Of a DNA stretch of 10,176 nucleotides, positions 25 through 10,176 are shown one piece after another. How positions within the stretch are numbered: the stretch's first letter is position 1; each line of letters opens with the position of its first letter. The stretch lies in the IMG/VR virus record IMGVR_UViG_2648501437_000009. One strand, given 5' to 3'. This DNA is from a virus. Taxonomy: Duplodnaviria > Heunggongvirae > Uroviricota > Caudoviricetes. Below the pieces are notes generated by a model. That model had not been told where the DNA came from. It saw only the letters and a program-made list of their open reading frames with translations, and ran no database searches. Made by a program: the position numbers and the translations under genes.

Positions 25-1443
25 ATGATGAACCCTGTTCCATGGCTCCAGATGACAAACATGATCTCATATCAGGGACTTGTTCGCACCTTCCCTAGTG
101 AACTTGCAAAACTGGAAAAGCTAAAGAATCAGTATTCAAAGGAAGAATATAATAATCTTATCGCTCAAATAAATGAGCGTTATAAAGATCCAAAGCAACC
201 AAAGGCGAAAGGTTATTCGGATGATGCTGCCCAACGAATGATTGATCATCTGAATCAACAGAATGCGTTACTAAGTTCACAAGCTGAATTGACCGTTAAA
301 TTAAGTTCCTCTGAACAGGAACTGGTTAAGTGGCGTCAGCAGATTGCCGACCTGGAGTCACGACCGTCATCGAAATTAACCCAGGATCAGAAATCGCTTC
401 TCTTACACCGGGAAGAAATAACCGCGTTGATGGAGAAAAATGTTGCGATTGAAAAAAATAACAGGCTAATCAAGGAATCCGCCGAAATAGCTGCATGGCG
501 TGATTCATTGCAGGCTTCGATTGATAATCGTCAACAGGGGTATGACATTCAGATTGCTGGTTATGGGGTTGGCGATAAAAATCAGCAACGCCAGCAGGAA
601 TTACTGCGGATTGAACGTGAATATAACAATCAGCGTCTGCAACTTGAACGTGACTATGCAGATAAATCCCGTGGAATGTCAAATCATGTTTTTCAGGAGA
701 AAATGCAGGCTCTGAATGATGCTCTGGAACGAGAAAAAGAAATTGTCAGCCAGATAAACGAGCAGCTCGATATTCAGGCAGGAGACTGGATTAGTGGTGC
801 CTCCCAGGGATTCAATAACTGGCTGGATGACACTAAGGATATCGGTGCGCAGATAAAATCAACCACGACTCAGATGTTTGGTGGGATGACCGATGCGCTA
901 GGTGATTTTGTCACGACAGGCAAGGCAAATTTTCGTTCTTTCGCGACTTCCGTGATTTCGGATCTTAGTCGAATAGCATTAAAGGCTTCAATTACTGGGA
1001 TTTTCGACAGCATTAGTAACAGTTCTTCCGGAGGGATTTTAGGAACTATCGGGAGTGCTATTAGTAAATTTATTCCGAATGCAAAGGGCGGTGTTTATGA
1101 GTCTCCGTCATTGAGCACGTATTCGAACGGTATTTATGATTCCCCGCAATTTTTTGCTTTTGCAAAAGGGGCTGGTGTTTTTGGTGAGGCTGGACCGGAA
1201 GCCATTATGCCATTAACACGAACTTCCGATGGTTCTCTTGGTGTCAGAGCTATTAATAGTAAAAGTGGTAATGGAGGCGGAGATATTACCTATGCCCCTG
1301 TATACCAAATCACTATTCAAAATGACGGCCAGAATGGAGAGATTGGCCCTCAGGCAATAAAAGCACTTATGGGGATGGTTGATCAGCGGGTGCAGGGCAA
1401 TCTGTTAAATATGCGACGTGATGGGGGAATGTTAAGTGGCTAA
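25..1443 (+). CDS. Tail tape measure protein, C-terminal ~470 codons (gpH-like); possibly truncated or disrupted at the 5' end
   Basis: ORF 25..1443. N-terminal half is charged, Q/E/K/R-rich and heptad-like (coiled-coil, typical of tape measure proteins); C-terminal half is Gly/Ser-rich, ending ...NDGQNGEIGPQAIKAL...MRRDGGMLSG, which resembles the lambda gpH C-terminus as I recall it. Sits immediately upstream of M-L-K-I-J. In-frame TGA TGA at 16..21 prevents upstream extension in this frame. Confidence 0.8.
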   Translation: MMNPVPWLQMTNMISYQGLVRTFPSELAKLEKLKNQYSKEEYNNLIAQINERYKDPKQPKAKGYSDDAAQRMIDHLNQQNALLSSQAELTVKLSSSEQELVKWRQQIADLESRPSSKLTQDQKSLLLHREEITALMEKNVAIEKNNRLIKESAEIAAWRDSLQASIDNRQQGYDIQIAGYGVGDKNQQRQQELLRIEREYNNQRLQLERDYADKSRGMSNHVFQEKMQALNDALEREKEIVSQINEQLDIQAGDWISGASQGFNNWLDDTKDIGAQIKSTTTQMFGGMTDALGDFVTTGKANFRSFATSVISDLSRIALKASITGIFDSISNSSSGGILGTIGSAISKFIPNAKGGVYESPSLSTYSNGIYDSPQFFAFAKGAGVFGEAGPEAIMPLTRTSDGSLGVRAINSKSGNGGGDITYAPVYQITIQNDGQNGEIGPQAIKALMGMVDQRVQGNLLNMRRDGGMLSG

Positions 1444-1774
1444 TACGGAAGAATTTCACTGGTTACCAGAGGATGGAATGAAAACAGAAAATAAACCATC
1501 GATAAAAACTGTAAGATTTGGCGATGGTTATGAGCAACGAAGTCCAAATGGACTTAATCATTCTCTGCGCGTTTTCACCTGTGATTTCAAAGTTGAGGCG
1601 AATGAACGTGATTCATTTGAAAAATTTTTAGCCCGGCATGAAGGCTATAAATCTTTTTTTTGGCGGCCGCCGGGTATTAACAGAAAAATCAGAGTGGTGT
1701 GTCGAACGTGGTCAGCGACAGAACATATCACCTATACCGATTTTTCGTGTCAGTTTGACGAAGTGGTGATCTGA
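1436..1774 (+). CDS. M: Tail tip protein M (minor tail protein M)
   Basis: ORF 1436..1774 (GTG start overlapping the upstream stop). A likelier start is the in-frame ATG at 1478, preceded by GAGGA at 1468..1472. Contains the VRFGDGYEQR and KSFFWRPP motifs matching the gpM family (recalled lambda M: VRFGDGYSQR, KSFLWTPP). About 100-110 aa, the expected size and position between the tape measure gene and L. Confidence 0.85.
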   Translation: MANTEEFHWLPEDGMKTENKPSIKTVRFGDGYEQRSPNGLNHSLRVFTCDFKVEANERDSFEKFLARHEGYKSFFWRPPGINRKIRVVCRTWSATEHITYTDFSCQFDEVVI

Positions 1775-2472
1775 TGCAGGACATACAACAGGAAACGCTG
1801 AATGAATGCATTCGTGCGGAGCAGTCGGCCAGCGTGGTGCTCTGGGAAATCGACCTGACCGAGGTAGGCGGGGATCGCTACTTTTTCTGCAATGAGCAGA
1901 ACGAAAAAGGAGAGTCTGTCACCTGGCAGAGTCGTCAGTATCAGGCCTATCCCATTCAGGGGAGTGGATTTGAGATGAACGGCAAAGGTGCCAGTGCAAG
2001 GCCAACGCTGAAAGTATCTAATCTACACGGCATGGTCACCGGGATGGTGGAGGATTTGCAGAGTCTGGTCGGCGGAACAGTGGTCCGGCGTAAGGTCTAC
2101 GCTCGTTTTCTGGATGCGGTGAACTTCATTAACGGAAACAGTGAAGCCGATCCGGAGCAGGAGGTGATCAGCCGCTGGTGCATCGAGCAGTGCAGCGAAC
2201 TGAACGCGGTTAGCGCGGCCTTTGTGCTGTCCACGCCGACGGAAACGGATGGTGCCGTTTTCCCGGGGCGTATCATGCTGGCTAATACCTGCACCTGGAC
2301 CTATCGCGGTGATGAGTGCGGTTATCACGGTCCGGCGGTCGCGGATGAATATGACCAGCCAACGTCCGATATCACGAAGGATAAATGCAGCAAATGCCTG
2401 AGTGGCTGTAAGTTTCGCAATAACGTCGGCAACTTTGGCGGCTTCCTTTCCATTAACAAACTTTCGCAGTGA
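1774..2472 (+). CDS. L: Tail tip assembly protein L (Fe-S cluster-binding)
   Basis: ORF 1774..2472, 232 aa. ATG overlaps the M stop (ATGA at 1772..1776). Protein MQDIQQETLNECIRAEQSASVVLWEIDL...CSKCLSGCKFRNNVGNFGGFLSINKLSQ appears near-identical to lambda gpL from memory, including the C-terminal cysteine cluster. Same length as lambda L. Confidence 0.95.
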   Translation: MQDIQQETLNECIRAEQSASVVLWEIDLTEVGGDRYFFCNEQNEKGESVTWQSRQYQAYPIQGSGFEMNGKGASARPTLKVSNLHGMVTGMVEDLQSLVGGTVVRRKVYARFLDAVNFINGNSEADPEQEVISRWCIEQCSELNAVSAAFVLSTPTETDGAVFPGRIMLANTCTWTYRGDECGYHGPAVADEYDQPTSDITKDKCSKCLSGCKFRNNVGNFGGFLSINKLSQ

Positions 2473-3221
2473 ATCCCATGACAGAGACAGAATCAGCGAT
2501 TCTGGCGCACGCCCGGCGATGTGCGCCAGCGGAGTCGTGCGGCTTCGTGGTGAGAACGCCGGAGGGAGAAAGATATTTTCCCTGCGTGAATATCTCCGGT
2601 GAGCCGGAGGCGTATTTCCGGATGTCGCCGGAGGACTGGCTGAGTGCAGAAATGCAGGGTGAGATTGTGGCGCTGGTGCACAGCCATCCCGGTGATCTGC
2701 CCTGGCTGAGTGAGGCCGACCGGCGACTGCAGGTGCAGAGTGATTTGCCGTGGTGGCTGGTCTGCCGGGGGGCGATTCATAAGTTCCGCTGTGTGCCGCA
2801 TCTCACCGGGCGGCGCTTTGAGCACGGGGTGACGGACTGTTACACGCTGTTCCGGGACGCTTACCATCTGGCGGGGATTGAGATGCCGGATTTTCATCGC
2901 GGGGATGACTGGTGGCGTAACGGTCAGAATCTCTATCTGGATAATCTGGAGGCCACGGGGCTGTATCAGGTGCCGTTGTCATCAGCACAACCGGGCGATG
3001 TGCTGTTGTGCTGTTTTGGTTCATCGGTGCCGAATCATGCCGCCATTTACTGTGGTGACGGCGAGCTGCTGCACCATATTCCTGAACAACTGAGCAAACG
3101 AGAGAGGTATACCGACAAATGGCAGCGACGCACACACTCCCTCTGGCGTCACCGGGCATGGCACGCATCTGCCTTTACGGGGATTTACAACGATTTGGCC
3201 GCCGCATCGACCTTCGAGTGA
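2469..3221 (+). CDS. K: Tail tip assembly protein K (JAMM/MPN-like plus NlpC/P60-like domains)
   Basis: ORF 2469..3221 (GTG overlapping the L stop; alternative ATG at 2478 giving MTETESAIL...). Contains a JAMM-type motif HSHPGDLPWLSEAD and a downstream Cys/His region (DCYTLF...HH) typical of NlpC/P60 papain-like folds, the architecture described for lambda gpK. The 3' end overlaps gene I by about 100 nt in a different frame. Confidence 0.88.
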   Translation: MNPMTETESAILAHARRCAPAESCGFVVRTPEGERYFPCVNISGEPEAYFRMSPEDWLSAEMQGEIVALVHSHPGDLPWLSEADRRLQVQSDLPWWLVCRGAIHKFRCVPHLTGRRFEHGVTDCYTLFRDAYHLAGIEMPDFHRGDDWWRNGQNLYLDNLEATGLYQVPLSSAQPGDVLLCCFGSSVPNHAAIYCGDGELLHHIPEQLSKRERYTDKWQRRTHSLWRHRAWHASAFTGIYNDLAAASTFE

Positions 3222-3760
3222 AAACGGGGTCCGAAGCCATCCGGGCGCTGGCCATGCAGATCCCGGCATTTCGTCAGAAACTGAGCGACGGCTGGTACCA
3301 GGTACGCATTGCCGGGCGTGATGCAGGTGAAACCGAATTGTCTGCCCGTCTTAATGAGCCGCTGGAAAATGGTGCCGTGATCCATATCGTGCCGCGTCTG
3401 GCAGGAGCCAAAAGTGGCGGTGTGTTTCAGGCTGTGCTGGGGGCGGCTGTTATGGCGGTTGCTATATGGATGCCGGGGGTAGGAATTATGGCGAGTAATC
3501 TGCTGTTTTCTCTCGGTGCCAGTATGACGCTTGGCGGTGTTGCACAGATGCTGGCCCCTAAACCCAAAACCCCCCGCACACAGACAACGGATAACGGCAA
3601 ACAGAATACCTATTTTTCTTCACTGGATAACATGGTTGCCCAGGGCAATGTTCTGCCGGTTCTGTACGGTGAAATGCGCGTGGGGTCACGCGTGGTTTCT
3701 CAGGAGATCAGCACGGCAGACGAAGGGGATGGTGGTCAGGTTGTGGTGATTGGTCGCTGA
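3119..3760 (+). CDS. I: Tail tip assembly protein I
   Basis: ORF 3119..3760, 213 aa. MAATHTLPLASPGMARICLYGDLQRFGRRIDLRVKTG... followed by a hydrophobic Gly/Ala-rich segment and C-terminal ...NVLPVLYGEMRVGSRVVSQEISTADEGDGGQVVVIGR; matches the gpI family. Positioned between K and J. Confidence 0.9.
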   Translation: MAATHTLPLASPGMARICLYGDLQRFGRRIDLRVKTGSEAIRALAMQIPAFRQKLSDGWYQVRIAGRDAGETELSARLNEPLENGAVIHIVPRLAGAKSGGVFQAVLGAAVMAVAIWMPGVGIMASNLLFSLGASMTLGGVAQMLAPKPKTPRTQTTDNGKQNTYFSSLDNMVAQGNVLPVLYGEMRVGSRVVSQEISTADEGDGGQVVVIGR

Positions 3761-3778
3761 TACAAAATGTTTTATGTG

Positions 3779-3798
3779 AAACCGCCTCCGGGCGGTTT
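3779..3798 (+). promoter_or_regulatory. Perfect 8-bp stem / 4-nt loop hairpin in the I-J intergenic gap (possible weak terminator, attenuator or RNA stability element)
   Basis: AAACCGCC (3779..3786) - TCCG - GGCGGTTT (3791..3798) are exact reverse complements; followed by TATCGTTTAT (T-rich but interrupted), then GGAG at 3809..3812 and the J ATG at 3821. Confidence 0.4.
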
Positions 3799-3820
3799 TA
3801 TCGTTTATGGAGCATGACGA

Positions 3821-4798
3821 ATGGGTAAAGGCAGCAGTAAGGGGCATACCCCGCGCGAAGCGAAGGACAACCTGAAGTCCACGCAGCTGCTGAGTGTGAT
3901 CGATGCCATCAGCGAAGGGCCGGTTGAAGGTCCGGTGGATGGATTAAAAAGCGTGCTGCTGAACAGTACGCCGGTGCTGGACAGTGAGGGGAATACCAAT
4001 ATATCCGGCGTCACGGTGGTGTTCCGGGCAGGTGAGCAGGAGCAGACACCGCCGGAGGGATTTGAATCCTCCGGCTCCGAGACGGTGCTGGGTACGGAAG
4101 TGAAATATGACACGCCGATAACCCGGACCATCACGTCGGCAAACATTGACCGTCTGCGCCTGACCTTCGGTGTGCAGGCACTGGTGGAAACCACCTCAAA
4201 GGGGGACAGGAATCCGTCGGAAGTCCGCCTGCTGGTTCAGATACAGCGTAATGGTGGCTGGGTGACGGAAAAAGACATCACCATTAAGGGCAAAACCACC
4301 TCGCAGTATCTGGCCTCGGTGGTGGTGGATAACCTGCCGCCGCGCCCGTTTAATATCCGGATGCGCAGAATGACGCCGGACAGCACCACAGACCAGCTGC
4401 AGAACAAAACGCTCTGGTCGTCATACACCGAAATCATCGATGTGAAACAGGGCTACCCGAACACGGCACTGGTCGGCGTACAGGTGGATTCGGAGCAGTT
4501 CGGCAGCCAGCAGGTGAGCCGTAATTATCATCTGCGCGGACGCATTCTGCAGGTGCCGTCGAACTACAACCCGCAAAAACGGCACATACAGCGGTATCTG
4601 GGACGGAACGTTAAAACCAGCATACAGCAACAACACGGCCTGGTGTCTGTGGGATATGCTGACCCACCCGCGCTACGGCATGGGGAAACGTCTTGGTGCA
4701 GCGGATGTGGACAAATGGGCGCTGTATGTCATCGGCCAGCACTGCGACCAGTCGGTGCCGGACGGCTCTGGCGGCACGGAGCCGCGCATCACCTGTAA
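3821..4798 (+). CDS. J: J fragment 1 (N-terminal); J-like sequence ends near 4576, rest of the ORF is out-of-frame read-through
   Basis: ORF 3821..4798. After ...LQVPSNYNPQ the translation (KRHIQRYLGRNVKTSIQQQH...) loses J-like character while the +1 frame continues J. Confidence 0.6.
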   Translation: MGKGSSKGHTPREAKDNLKSTQLLSVIDAISEGPVEGPVDGLKSVLLNSTPVLDSEGNTNISGVTVVFRAGEQEQTPPEGFESSGSETVLGTEVKYDTPITRTITSANIDRLRLTFGVQALVETTSKGDRNPSEVRLLVQIQRNGGWVTEKDITIKGKTTSQYLASVVVDNLPPRPFNIRMRRMTPDSTTDQLQNKTLWSSYTEIIDVKQGYPNTALVGVQVDSEQFGSQQVSRNYHLRGRILQVPSNYNPQKRHIQRYLGRNVKTSIQQQHGLVSVGYADPPALRHGETSWCSGCGQMGAVCHRPALRPVGAGRLWRHGAAHHL

Positions 4799-5474
4799 TG
4801 CGTACCTGACCACACAGCGCAAGGCGTGGGATGTGCTCAGTGATTTCTGCTCGGCGATGCGCTGTATGCCGGTATGGAACGGGCAGACGCTGACGTTCGT
4901 GCAGGACCGACCGTCGGATAAGGTGTGGACCTATAACCGCAGTAATGTGGTGATGCCGGATGATGGCGCGCCGTTCCGCTACAGCTTCAGCGCCCTGAAA
5001 GACCGCCATAATGCCGTTGAGGTGAACTGGATTGACCCGAATAACGGCTGGGAGACGGCGACAGAGCTTGTGGAGGATACGCAGGCCATTGCCCGTTACG
5101 GTCGTAACGTCACGAAGATGGATGCCTTTGGCTGTACCAGCCGGGGGCAGGCACACCGCGCCGGGCTGTGGCTGATTAAAACAGAACTGCTGGAAACGCA
5201 GACCGTGGACTTCAGCGTGGGTGCCGAAGGGCTTCGCCATGTACCGGGCGATGTCATTGAAATCTGTGATGATGACTATGCCGGTATCAGCACCGGCGGG
5301 CGCGTGCTGGCGGTAAACAGCCAGACCCGGACGCTGACGCTCGACCGTGAAATCACGCTGCCATCTTCCGGCACCACGCTGATAAGCCTGGTTGACGGGA
5401 AGTGGCAATCCGATCAGCGTGGAGGTTCAGTCCGTCACCGACGGCGTGAAGGTGAAAGTGAGCCGTGTTCCTGA
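4656..5474 (+). CDS. J: J fragment 2 (central); J-like reading frame actually begins near 4581 and ends near 5399
   Basis: ORF 4656..5474 from first ATG ([28 protein letters not shown]...). The same frame is open and J-like upstream from about 4581 (GTYSGIWDGTLKPAYSNNTAWCLWD). After ...LISLVDG the tail ([24 protein letters not shown]) is out-of-frame read-through. Confidence 0.6.
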
Positions 5475-7302
5475 CGGCGTTGCTGAATACAGCGTGTGGG
5501 GGCTGAAGCTGCCGACGTTGCGCCAGCGCCTGTTCCGCTGCGTGAGTATCCGTGAGAACGACGACGGCACGTATGCCATCACCGCCGTGCAGCATGTGCC
5601 GGAAAAAGAGGCCATCGTGGATAACGGGGCGCACTTTGACGGCGACCAGAGCGGCACGGTGAATGGTGTCACGCCGCCAGCGGTGCAGCACCTGACCGCA
5701 GAAGTCACCGCAGACAGCGGGGAATATCAGGTGCTGGCGCGCTGGGACACGCCGAAGGTGGTGAAGGGCGTGAGCTTCATGCTTCGCCTGACCGTGGCAG
5801 CGGACGACGGCAGTGAGCGGCTGGTCAGCACGGCCCGGACGACGGAAACCACATACCGCTTCACGCAACTGGCGCTGGGGAACTACAGGCTGACAGTCCG
5901 GGCGGTAAATGCGTGGGGGCAGCAGGGCGATCCGGCGTCGGTATCGTTCCGGATTGCCGCACCGGCAGCACCGTCGCGGATTGAGCTGACGCCGGGCTAT
6001 TTTCAGATAACCGCAACGCCGCATCTTGCCGTTTATGATCCGACGGTACAGTTTGAGTTCTGGTTCTCGGAAAAGCGGATTACCGATATCAGGCAGGTTG
6101 AAACCACAGCCCGCTATCTTGGTACGGCGCTGTACTGGATAGCTGCCAGTATCAATATCAGGCCGGGCCATGATTATTATTTTTATATCCGCAGTGTGAA
6201 TACCGTTGGCAAATCGGCATTCGTGGAGGCTGTTGGTCAGCCGAGTGATGATGCATCCGGTTATCTGGATTTTTTCAAAGGCGAGATAGGGAAAACCCAT
6301 CTGGCTCATGAGCTGTGGACGCAGATTGATAACGGTCAGCTTGCGCCTGACCTGGCTGAAATCAGGACGTCCATTACGGATGTCAGCAATGAAATCACGC
6401 AGACCGTCAATAAGAAACTGGAAGACCAGAGTGCGGCAATTCAGCAGATACAGAAGGTTCAGGTTGATACAAATAATAACCTGAACAGCATGTGGGCTGT
6501 GAAGCTGCAGCAGATGCAGGACGGACGCCTTTATATCGCGGGTATTGGTGCCGGTATTGAGAACACCCCTGACGGCATGCAGAGTCAGGTGCTGCTGGCG
6601 GCGGACAGGATTGCGATGATTAATCCTGCGAATGGCAACACAAAACCGATGTTTGTTGGTCAGGGCGATCAGATATTCATGAACGAAGTGTTCCTGAAAT
6701 ATCTGACGGCTCCCACCATTACCAGCGGCGGTAATCCTCCGACATTTTCCCTGACACCGGACGGGCGGCTGACGGCGAAAAATGCCGATATCAGCGGTAA
6801 CGTGAATGCGAACTCCGGGACGCTCAATAATGTCACGATTAACCAGAACTGTCGGATTATGGGAAAGCTGTCTGTCAACCAGATTGAAGGCGATATTGTC
6901 AAAACAGTGGGTAAGGCTTTCCCGCGGGACTCCCGGGCACCGGAGCGGTGGCCATCAGGGACCATTACCGTCAGGATTTATGACGATCAGCCGTTTGACC
7001 GGCAGATTGTTATTCCGGCGGTGGCATTCAGCGGCGCTAAACATGAGAGAGAGCATACTGATATTTACTCCTCATGCCGTCTGATAGTGCGGAAAAACGG
7101 TGCTGAAATTTATAACCGTACCGCGCTGGATAATACGCTGATTTACAGTGGCGTTATTGATATGCCTGCCGGTCACGGTCACATGACGCTGGAGTTTTCG
7201 GTATCAGCATGGCTGGTGAATGACTGGTATCCCACAGCAAGTATCAGCGATTTGCTGGTTGTGGTGATGAAGAAAGCCACCGCAGGCATCAGTATCAGTT
7301 GA
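5392..7302 (+). CDS. J: J fragment 3 (C-terminal, includes the presumed receptor-binding region)
   Basis: ORF 5392..7302 (TTG at 5392 is an ORF-caller start; J frame resumes at about 5401 with [26 protein letters not shown]). 636 codons uninterrupted to the stop at 7300..7302. Confidence 0.65.
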
Positions 7303-7369: not shown

Positions 7370-7969
7370 ATGCGTAAATTATGTGCTGTTATTCTGTCTG
7401 CAGTAGTCTGGCTGGTCGCCGCTGGTACGCCAGCGAGTGCAGCAGAGCATCAGTCCACACTAAGCGCCGGGTATCTTCAGACCCATACTGATATGCCAGG
7501 CAGCGATGACCTGAAGGGCATTAACGTGAAATACCGTTATGAGTTTACGGACACGCTGGGGCTGATTACGTCATTCAGTTATGCCAATGCTGAAGATGAG
7601 CAAAAAACGCATTACAGCGATACCCGCTGGCATGAAGATTCCGTGCGTAACCGCTGGTTCAGCGTGATGGCGGGGCCGTCTGTGCGCGTGAATGAATGGT
7701 TCAGCGCGTATGCGATGGCGGGTATGGCTTACAGCCGTGTGTCGACTTTCTCCGGGGATTATCTGCACGTAACCGACAACAAGGGGAAAACGCACGATGT
7801 GCTGACCGGAAGTGATGACGGTCGCCACAGCAACACGTCTCTGGCGTGGGGAGCTGGCGTGCAGTTTAACCCGACCGAATCCGTGGCCATTGATATTGCT
7901 TATGAAGGTTCCGGCAGTGGCGACTGGCGTACTGACGGTTTCATCGTGGGTGTCGGTTATAAATTCTGA
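7370..7969 (+). CDS. lom: Lom outer-membrane protein (Ail/Lom/PagC/OmpX family beta-barrel); lysogenic-conversion moron
   Basis: ORF 7370..7969, 199 aa. RBS GAGAGG at about 7357..7362. N-terminal signal peptide MRKLCAVILSAVVWLVAAGTPASA-AEH. C-terminus ...VAIDIAYEGSGSGDWRTDGFIVGVGYKF ends in aromatic F, typical of OM beta-barrels, and matches the lambda Lom C-terminus as I recall it. Position after J matches lambda. Confidence 0.9.
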   Translation: MRKLCAVILSAVVWLVAAGTPASAAEHQSTLSAGYLQTHTDMPGSDDLKGINVKYRYEFTDTLGLITSFSYANAEDEQKTHYSDTRWHEDSVRNRWFSVMAGPSVRVNEWFSAYAMAGMAYSRVSTFSGDYLHVTDNKGKTHDVLTGSDDGRHSNTSLAWGAGVQFNPTESVAIDIAYEGSGSGDWRTDGFIVGVGYKF

Positions 7970-7995
7970 TTAGCCAGGTAACACAGTGTTATGGC

Positions 7996-8022
7996 AGCCC
8001 GCAGATTCTGGCGGGCTTTTTT
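7996..8022 (+). terminator. Rho-independent terminator downstream of lom
   Basis: AGCCCGC (7996..8002) - 8-nt loop - GCGGGCT (8011..8017), followed by a T-run (8017..8022). Lies 27 nt after the lom stop and 12 nt before the stf ATG. Confidence 0.75.
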
Positions 8023-8033
8023 GTGGGGTGAAT

Positions 8034-10176
8034 ATGGCAGTAAAGATTTCAGGTGTACTGAAAGACGGTGCAGGTAAACCGATACAGAACTGCACAATCC
8101 AGCTGAAAGCAAAACGTAACAGCACCACGGTGGTGGTGAACACGGTGGCCTCAGAAAATCCGGATGAAGCCGGGCGTTACAGCATGGACGTTGAGTACGG
8201 TCAGTACAGCGTTATTCTGTTGGTGGAGGGATTCCCGCCGTCACATGCCGGGACCATCACCGTGTATGAAGACTCCCAACCCGGTACGCTGAATGATTTT
8301 CTTGGTGCCATGACGGAGGATGATGCCCGTCCGGAGGCACTGCGCCGTTTTGAACTGATGGTGGAAGAGGTGGCGCGTAACGCGTCCGCAGTGGCACAGA
8401 ACACGGCAGCCGCGAAGAAGTCAGCCAGCGATGCCGGCACATCAGCCCGTGAGGCGGCAACTCATGCAACCGATGCTGCAGGCTCAGCACGTGCCGCCAG
8501 CACGTCAGCCGGACAGGCCGCGTCGTCGGCTCAGTCAGCATCTTCCAGCGCAGGAACGGCATCAACAAAGGCCACTGAAGCATCAAAAAGTGCTGCCGCT
8601 GCAGAGTCTTCAAAAAGCGCGGCTGCCACCAGTGCCGGTGCCGCGTCAACAAGTGCCGGGCAGGCCTCAGCCAGTGCCACCGCCGCCGGAAAATCGGCAG
8701 AAAGCGCCGCCTCGTCCGCTTCAACAGCCACAACGAAGGCTGGCGAAGCCACTGAACAGGCCAGCGCAGCAGCGAGGTCTGCTTCCGCAGCGAAGACATC
8801 TGAGACGAATGCGAAAGCGTCGGAAACCCGTGCAGAATCCTCAAAAACGGCAGCCGCATCGTCCGCCAGTTCGGCGGCGTCATCGGCATCATCTGCGTCT
8901 GCTTCAAAAGATGAGGCGACCAGACAGGCGTCAGCAGCAAAGGGCAGCGCCACGACGGCATCCACGAAGGCGACAGAGGCAGCTGGCAGTGCGACGGCGG
9001 CAGCTCAGAGCAAAAGTACGGCGGAATCCGCGGCAACGCGCGCCGAGACAGCGGCAAAACGGGCAGAGGATATTGCATCCGCCGTGGCGCTTGAGGATGC
9101 AAGTACGACGAAAAAGGGGATAGTACAGCTCAGCAGTGCGACCAACAGCACTTCCGAGTCACTGGCGGCAACGCCAAAGGCAGTAAAAGCAGCCAATGAC
9201 AATGCTGAGAAACGTCTGCAGAAAGATCAGAACGGTGCGGATATCCCTGGCAAAGACACCTTTACGAAAAATATTGGTGCCTGCCGTGCCTTCGGTGGGT
9301 CAGTAAGCACAACAACAGGAAACTGGACGACTGCACAGTTTATCGAGTGGCTGGATTCTCAGGGAGCATTTAACCATCCATACTGGATGTGCAAGGGTTC
9401 CTGGTCTTATGGCAATAATAAAATCATTACTGATACTGGCTGCGGTAATATTCATCTCGCCGGAGCTGTCATTGAAGTAATGGGGATAAAGTCAGCGATG
9501 ACGATCCGCATTACCACACCGACCACCTCCACTGGTGGTGGAACAACTAACGCCCAGTTTACCTATATTAATCACGGAACAGATTATTCACCTGGCTGGC
9601 GAAGGGACTATAACTCCAGAAATAAGCCAACGGCATCAGAGATCGGGGCGTTACCGTCAGGTGGAACAGCAGTATCATCAGTTAATTTGTCTTCAAAAGG
9701 TCGGGTAACCGCGCTGACAGACAATACGCAGGGGGCAACAGGTCTTGAGTTATACGAGGTGTATAACAACGGATATCCAACAGCGTATGGAAATATCATT
9801 CACCTGAAAGGGATGACAGCCGTTGGCGAAGGTGAGTTACTCATCGGCTGGAGTGGTACAAGCGGTGCTCATGCTCCGGCATTTATTCGTTCACGACGGG
9901 ATACGACCGACGCAAACTGGTCGCCGTGGGCGCAGCTTTACACCTCGGCTCATCCTCCTGCAGAGTTTTATCCAGTCGGTGCACCAATCCCGTGGCCATC
10001 AGATACCGTTCCGTCTGGTTATGCCCTGATGCAGGGGCAGACTTTTGACAAATCTGCTTACCCGAAACTTGCAGTTGCTTATCCGTCAGGCGTTATTCCT
10101 GATATGCGTGGCTGGACGATTAAGGGCAAGCCCGGCAGTGGTCGTGCCGTATTGTCTCAGGAACAGGACGGCATTA
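8034..10176 (+). CDS. stf: Side tail fibre protein Stf (partial, 3' end beyond window)
   Basis: ATG at 8034 with GGGGTG upstream. I translated the frame by hand: open to the window end with no stop (missing from the ORF track because there is no stop in-window). N-terminus [60 protein letters not shown] matches the lambda Stf N-terminus from memory. Followed by a long Ala/Ser-rich tract, the [26 protein letters not shown] motif, and a distal [37 protein letters not shown] motif typical of enterobacterial phage tail-fibre C-terminal regions. Confidence 0.9.
8380..9080 (+). repeat. Degenerate Ala/Ser/Thr-rich low-complexity repeat tract within stf (fibre shaft)
   Basis: About 230 codons dominated by A, S, T, K, E in recurring short units (e.g. 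SAxSAxxASxSA, [21 protein letters not shown]). GC-rich and stop-poor in several frames on both strands, which generates the long overlapping shadow ORFs 8257..9102(-), 8531..8965(-) and 8431..9123(+). Confidence 0.6.

Follow-up and report, generated by a model that had tools for sequence, protein, structure and literature searches.

The tail-gene module and the split J gene

The stretch analyzed here ("the window," 10,176 nt) makes up the whole of draft contig JHSO01000113.1 in assembly GCA_001266005.1; the proteins of this contig carry the NCBI name Escherichia coli. It holds a lambda-like tail module in the order H'-M-L-K-I-J-lom-stf, which is also the order in annotated relatives (Table 1), and both in its gene order (tape measure, M, L, K, I, J, lom, stf) and in the Pfam set of its J it resembles the lambda gpJ system.

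The J gene of the window aligns over its full length, with 97% nucleotide identity, to a RefSeq gene annotated as "gpJ: phage attachment tail tip protein J"; identity to RefSeq gpJ genes is 95-97%, and the motif SNYNPQ-x-R-x-YSGIWDG matches theirs. The three called fragments have Pfam matches to FNIII-A_GpJ, Phage-tail_3, Ig_J, Ig_J_second, Phage_Tail_Tip and Ig_GpJ_C, and the gene lies between I and lom/stf, so that homology, domain content and location all assign it to gpJ. The preliminary description, which had called it a lambda-type J from the letters of the DNA, was right in this (both the nucleotide identity to gpJ and the Pfam matches agree), and also in placing a second break further along the gene.

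The J of the window differs from intact gpJ in being 2 nt longer (3482 nt vs 3480 nt in intact E. coli gpJ, which amounts to two 1-nt excesses) and in requiring three frames in place of a single ORF of ~1130-1160 codons. Frame 1 covers 3821-4582, frame 2 4584-5396 and frame 3 5398-7302, with the two frame changes, each +1, at 4581-4585 and 5397-5403. We attribute the failure of J to be one ORF to the assembly and do not blame the gene itself. The fragments do stand as separate ORFs in protein databases, and the exact product of the 325-aa ORF at the head of J was found on the window contig alone among ~15 billion proteins. Its 90% cluster also contains a J fragment from a Logan assembly (P0002, on a 1,295-nt contig) that is frameshifted a few codons further on, after GTFKP.

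Table 1. Features of the window (JHSO01000113.1), with positions counted from its first letter
Feature	Position	Strand	Remarks
Tape measure, C-terminal part	25-1443	+	uninterrupted
M	1436-1774	+	uninterrupted; exact protein on ~1000 other contigs
L	1774-2472	+	uninterrupted; exact protein on 24 contigs
K	2478-3221	+	uninterrupted; exact protein on 2 contigs
I	3158-3760	+	uninterrupted; exact protein on ~1000 other contigs
J (gpJ, TipJ family; tail tip / host-specificity)	3821-7302	+	from translations, nucleotide identity and Pfam
325-aa ORF	3821-4798	+	gene-caller product; J N-terminus plus out-of-frame tail (KRHIQRYLGRNVKTSIQQQ...)
Blended stretch	4451-5413	+	alphabetically lower base, or base over gap, of two J allele types
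Junction 1, CAAAAACGGCACATAC	4574-4589	+	from alignments to intact alleles and allele survey
A5 run	4575-4579	+	normal in EKRT-type alleles (GAA AAA CGC/CGT); not the site of the excess base
Junction 2, GACGGGAAGTGGCAAT	5394-5409	+	union of type A and type B alleles
lom	7370-7969	+	downstream of J
Tail-fibre (stf-like) ORF	7986-10176	+	leaves the contig at its end

Natural J alleles at the two frame breaks

IMG/VR and the genomes of E. coli supplied ~130 related J loci, which at the first break were of the QTRQY and EKRTY types only, apart from junction 1 itself in contigs of the JHSO and JHTM series. The QTRQ type (~120 copies) reads CCG CAG ACG CGG CAA TAC (P-Q-T-R-Q-Y) and the EKRT type (7 copies) CCG GAA AAA CGC or CGT ACA TAC (P-E-K-R-T-Y), the latter thus containing GAAAAAC, a run of five A. 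Among 140 homologous proteins, 138 have NYNPQTRQY and two NYDPEKRTY. All intact alleles in the survey conform to x-[T/K]-R-[Q/T]-Y-S, and the arginine that follows the run is invariant (~126 DNA copies and 140 proteins). Aligned with MAFFT, the two types differ by compensating 1-nt gaps, CGG CA-A vs CG- CACA, at 4581/4585; the natural alleles themselves look as though they were related by a compensated double frameshift over one codon (CGG CAA vs CGC ACA), a small instance of naturally paired indels inside a conserved motif.

Translation bore out the frame that had been described: SNYNPQ is read from the ATG at 3821, with CAA at 4574-4576 and the A-run at 4575-4579 within CAAAAAC, and J-homologous text (GTYSGIWDGTLKPAYSNN) is found in the +1 frame from 4581. 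A +1 break in the region ~4575-4585 therefore does exist in the deposited sequence, but the A-run, where it had been placed, is not its site. Frame 1 is homologous to intact J through AAA CGG (K-R, 4577-4582) and frame 2 is homologous from ACA TAC onward (from 4584), so the excess base must lie within 4581-4585, 2-6 nt downstream of the run; aligned to homologues, the frame change falls at CGG|C|ACA, the very kind of displacement that had been named in advance as speaking against a homopolymer origin. The run is of the same length as in intact EKRT-type alleles and the frame does not change inside it, neither of which is what homopolymer slippage would leave. Junction 1 instead holds both G 4581, which the QTRQ type has and the EKRT type lacks, and C 4585, which the EKRT type has and the QTRQ type lacks, for a net +1.

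The second +1 change, after which the remainder of J continues in the third frame, falls at GACGGGAAGTGG (5394-5405) and is built in the same way. Type A alleles have GAC-GGAAGTGGCAAT here (D-G-S-G-N) and type B alleles GACGGGCAG-GGGAGT (D-G-Q-G-S); junction 2 retains both G 5397 and T 5403, again for a net +1, and adjoins a G-run at 5397-5399.

A lower-letter blend confined to part of J and recurring in sister contigs

The sequence around the breaks was compared with what we call the min rule, which takes at each column the alphabetically lower base of two alleles and lets any base beat a gap. All pairs of natural alleles were tested against window positions 4451-5057. With one EKRT-type allele (L009) and one QTRQ-type allele (L019), the window equals the min of the pair at 30/30 differing columns, including 4581 and 4585, and the only other difference from min(L009, L019) is a private A at 5000. 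Over 4451-5057 the best single allele leaves 10 mismatches to the window, the best max-pair 15 and the best min-pair 1; when the min-pair rule was applied to 78 natural control alleles, the gain in fit was at most 4.

The rule extends to junction 2. With L010 (type A) and L037 (type B), it holds at 12/15 informative columns over 5243-5541, both indel columns included (the columns off the rule with these stand-ins are 5267, 5366 and 5496), and min(L010, L037) yields GACGGGAAGTGGCAAT complete with G 5397 and T 5403, the insertion being reproduced only with a gap-friendly alignment of the two. L009, L019, L010 and L037 are stand-in parents drawn from other genomes, and the lower letters at 5000 and 5413 suggest that the true parents were slightly unlike them. 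Among the alleles compared, only the window and the JHTM contig described below have A at 5000; the A at 5413 is common to L008, L009, L010, L055 and L092.

The same direction is seen in a comparison that involves no selection of pairs. An identical K protein led us to a copy of this prophage in a second E. coli strain (AASSYB010000135.1 of GCA_012557915.1, hereafter L131), which differs from the window by 3 SNPs over 101-4000, has identical K and L proteins and carries an intact J that is of the QTRQ type at junction 1; its contig (1-4751) breaks off within J, which is to be expected of a gene that is repeated. Over window positions 4451-4768, all 16 substitutions between the two have the lower letter in the window, which also has one insertion (C). 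Upstream of 4451 and beyond ~5420, in contrast, differences of the window from its nearest alleles are unbiased and so serve as an internal control, and pairs of natural alleles are balanced (28:32 and 75:76, for example). The window is thus a per-column function of two real alleles over a local stretch, with the rest of the contig unbiased, as merged paralogs would leave it, and it does not have the unbiased flanking differences of a genuine pseudogene (16:0 here, 10:0 and 30:3 in the two contigs that follow, and 30/30 min-rule columns).

Two other contigs contain junction 1. One, JHSO01000129.1 (positions 1193-1240), comes from the same assembly as the window, as exact-protein look-ups showed; it is ~5% different from the window, has the identical junction 1 without junction 2, and its downstream frame is fully open. 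Near-identical intact relatives of it exist (L137 and L138, QTRQ type), and against the nearest, L137, it shows 10:0 lower-letter substitutions and one insertion, the substitutions falling mostly in the equivalent of window positions 4358-4585. This contig (L006, also L132) had come up in IMG/VR and was dropped as independent support for a real mutation once it proved to belong to the same assembly. The third copy of junction 1 is in JHTM01000182.1 (L134, 2901-2948; GCA_001506145.1), which has a neighbouring accession prefix; against its near-identical intact relative JHRS01000262.1 (EKRT type) it has 33 substitutions, biased 30:3 toward the lower letter, and one insertion, and its biased differences span the equivalent of window positions 3887-5836, which suggests a pipeline-wide problem. 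Of the four indels found across the three suspect contigs, every one is an insertion and none a deletion. The window contig and JHSO01000129.1 keep distinct SNPs ~30 nt from the junction that they share (4619, for example, is A in one and G in the other), so the blending cannot have been a simple homogenisation of multi-mapped reads.

Outside these contigs the junction was not encountered. None of 5,426 complete E. coli genomes contained a 60-nt sequence across junction 1 (best match 93.3%), and their best matches to the 201-nt stretch 4480-4680 reached 97.0% and were gapped; in IMG/VR the junction occurred, besides the window, solely in JHSO01000129.1. A pattern scan of species-representative genomes, a collection that gave no J allele, produced one chance match outside J (in a Nitrospirota MAG), and a scan of JGI metagenomes, which likewise gave no J allele at all, produced no match. 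Among 5.8 billion protein clusters, the hits of the out-of-frame tail peptide were J genes frameshifted in other, unrelated ways, for the most part in noisy assemblies; junction 1 was in none of them. The hypothetical intact parents QKRTYS, QKRQYS and QNGTYS were not found in IMG/VR, and phage records offered nothing closer than 95.5%. The parental counterparts of the junction k-mers CAAAAACGGCACATAC and GACGGGAAGTGGCAAT are CAGACGCGGCAATAC, GAAAAACGCACATAC, GACGGAAGTGGCAAT and GACGGGCAGGGGAGT. A search of the literature by accession number, project or assembler of GCA_001266005.1 returned nothing usable.

Origin and meaning of the frame breaks

The explanation that we favor, with a probability of about 0.88, is that the frame break was created in the assembly, as a consensus artefact of merged J paralogs. 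No biological process sorts bases alphabetically; a consensus caller with a fixed tie order does so when it is faced with one-against-one columns. The sequenced E. coli would carry several lambdoid prophages with J genes 95-97% identical to one another, and over ~4451-5413, in the conserved 5' half of J, two of these copies would have been overlaid by the assembler or by a contig-merging or polishing step, the parents being a QTRQ-type J like that of L131 and an EKRT-type J. The consensus would then have been taken column by column at effectively one-against-one depth, with ties resolved in the fixed order A, C, G, T and then gap. Ties are settled in the order A-C-G-T by some consensus callers, and one-against-one columns can arise in pipelines that build super-reads or merge contigs. 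Where the two copies align with compensating gaps (CGG-CA-A vs CG-CACA at 4581/4585 and GAC-GGAAGT vs GACGGGCAG- at 5397/5403), both bases would have been kept, so that each gap pair contributes a net +1 and two "frameshifts" appear that are present in neither parent. A pure de Bruijn assembler makes no new k-mers, and a consensus or merging step must therefore be postulated; we infer that such a step was responsible, that both real J copies of the strain are intact at the site and that the junction 16-mer would be missing from the raw reads.

The preliminary description had offered a choice between a sequencing or assembly error at the homopolymer and a genuine inactivating mutation that would mark a defective prophage. 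Of these the assembly artefact is the better, but as a column-wise blend of two J paralogs and not as a miscall of A4 as A5; the inactivating mutation is left without support, as the sequence around the break represents no single DNA molecule.

Several explanations would make the break real, and the one that fares best of them is still improbable. It supposes a true 1-base insertion, either CGC becoming CGGC or one more C ahead of ACA, in an unsampled intact N-P-Q-K-R-T-Y-S allele; J would have been inactivated, and the lesion would then have spread by gene conversion to paralogs and to a related strain. Gene conversion is well known among co-resident lambdoid prophages, and it would account for an identical junction in three J backgrounds (the window, JHSO01000129.1 and JHTM01000182.1) whose SNPs near the junction still tell them apart. 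The parent allele that it calls for (CAAAAACGCACATAC or CAAAAACGGCAATAC) was, however, found neither in the complete genomes of E. coli nor in IMG/VR; the letter direction of 16:0, 10:0 and 30:3 and the 30/30 min-rule columns are left unaccounted for, and so is the second frameshift at another site of compensating indels. Framed more broadly, and with a probability that we would also put quite low, the junction might be physically real in the sense that a frameshifted J segment of ~130 nt (4480-4618) had spread by gene conversion in three or more lambdoid prophages, co-resident or related, of one E. coli lineage, the letter pattern being a coincidence of the donor allele. If that were true, host recognition would have been lost at once in all of those prophages.

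A QTRQ-type and an EKRT-type J could in principle have recombined in vivo, with exchanges between the compensating indels, into a true hybrid pseudogene; lambdoid J genes are indeed mosaic, and both breaks lie exactly at sites of paired indels that distinguish the allele types. A mosaic of L009 and L019 would nevertheless need 12 parent switches in ~520 nt, some of them only 1-3 nt apart, which rules out a single crossover, and the switch would have had to land on the lower letter every time. Alphabetical order is nothing that heteroduplex repair could impose, such behaviour was seen in no other natural allele, and the long parental tracts that ought to flank the junction are not seen. We regard a recombinant origin as very improbable.

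Even less can be said for the gain of one A in the run (A4 to A5), whether through replication slippage in the cell or through miscalling of the homopolymer, in a gene whose intact protein would read NPQ-N-GTYSGIW. Removal of one A does reopen the frame, and short A-runs are common indel sites, but the intact EKRT-type alleles already carry A5 followed by CGC/CGT ACA, and the N-G repair destroys the arginine codon that is invariant in intact alleles. A pattern scan of IMG/VR that was able to catch the A4 sequence (CAAAACGGCACATAC) did not return it, and it is in none of ~127 DNA allele copies and 140 homologous proteins; five A are, moreover, few for slippage or a miscall, and the blend signature would be left over.

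Programmed +1 frameshifting on AAA CGG, by which ribosomes would still make full-length J, can practically be dismissed: CGG is rare in E. coli, the tRNA-Lys that decodes AAA is prone to slip and the downstream frame is fully open in JHSO01000129.1, but J is one unbroken ORF in thousands of homologues, none of the 5,426 complete genomes contains the junction, the shift would give K-G-T and lose the invariant arginine, a second, unrelated +1 event would be needed at 5397, no stimulatory element was evident on inspection, AAA CGG is no established +1 site, and the local sequence is demonstrably a blend.

Set beside known kinds of error, the window resembles collapsed-repeat or chimeric consensus errors in being a mosaic of single columns in which the lower letter is chosen and a base is preferred to a gap, in affecting only the portion of a multi-copy prophage gene that is most conserved, in the recurrence of the signature in sister assemblies (JHSO and JHTM) and in the lack of the junction in finished genomes. 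Homopolymer frameshifts share with it a 1-nt excess adjoining an A-run, with the second break adjoining a G-run; they differ in that here the runs are of intact-allele length (A5 as in the EKRT type, GGG as in type B) and the excess comes from combined alleles. The J pseudogenes of defective prophages give the same split-ORF picture when a gene caller is run on them, but a true pseudogene would show unbiased substitutions and be reproducible, whereas the window is alphabetically sorted and the same prophage is intact in L131.

Taken at face value, the frameshift would mark the prophage as tail-defective, and automated annotation would enter J either as a pseudogene or as a set of three "hypothetical" ORFs. 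Recognition of the break as a consensus blend takes that inference away: the break is a property of the deposited sequence and very probably not of the genome, it provides no evidence of a defective prophage, and it teaches nothing new about the biology of phage or host. It is instead a warning that multi-copy prophage genes contain fabricated stretches in at least two assemblies with neighbouring accession prefixes (JHSO and JHTM). Regions of this kind can be recognised without reads, by comparison with the closest natural allele: the differences lean toward the lower letter, and both bases are retained at compensating indels. The bias test could also uncover many pseudo-frameshifts of this sort in publicly deposited draft genomes.

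Two further observations concern neighbouring material. The exact Lom protein of the window (7370-7969) occurs on the window contig only, among ~15 billion proteins, and its 90% cluster has 2,821 members; the lom region has no letter bias, and this may be a rare allele. In E. coli DEC12B (AIHB01000056.1, L133, at ~434-560), J is split into pieces of 162 and 881 aa. The 881-aa piece, a J fragment of matching length, had been considered as a possible case of the same lesion and was dropped, as the DEC12B split comes from homopolymer deletions of another kind: several 1-base deletions in short runs (GGGACG-AACGTTAAA-CC, CCCGGC-TGG), an error type that resembles that of pyrosequencing.
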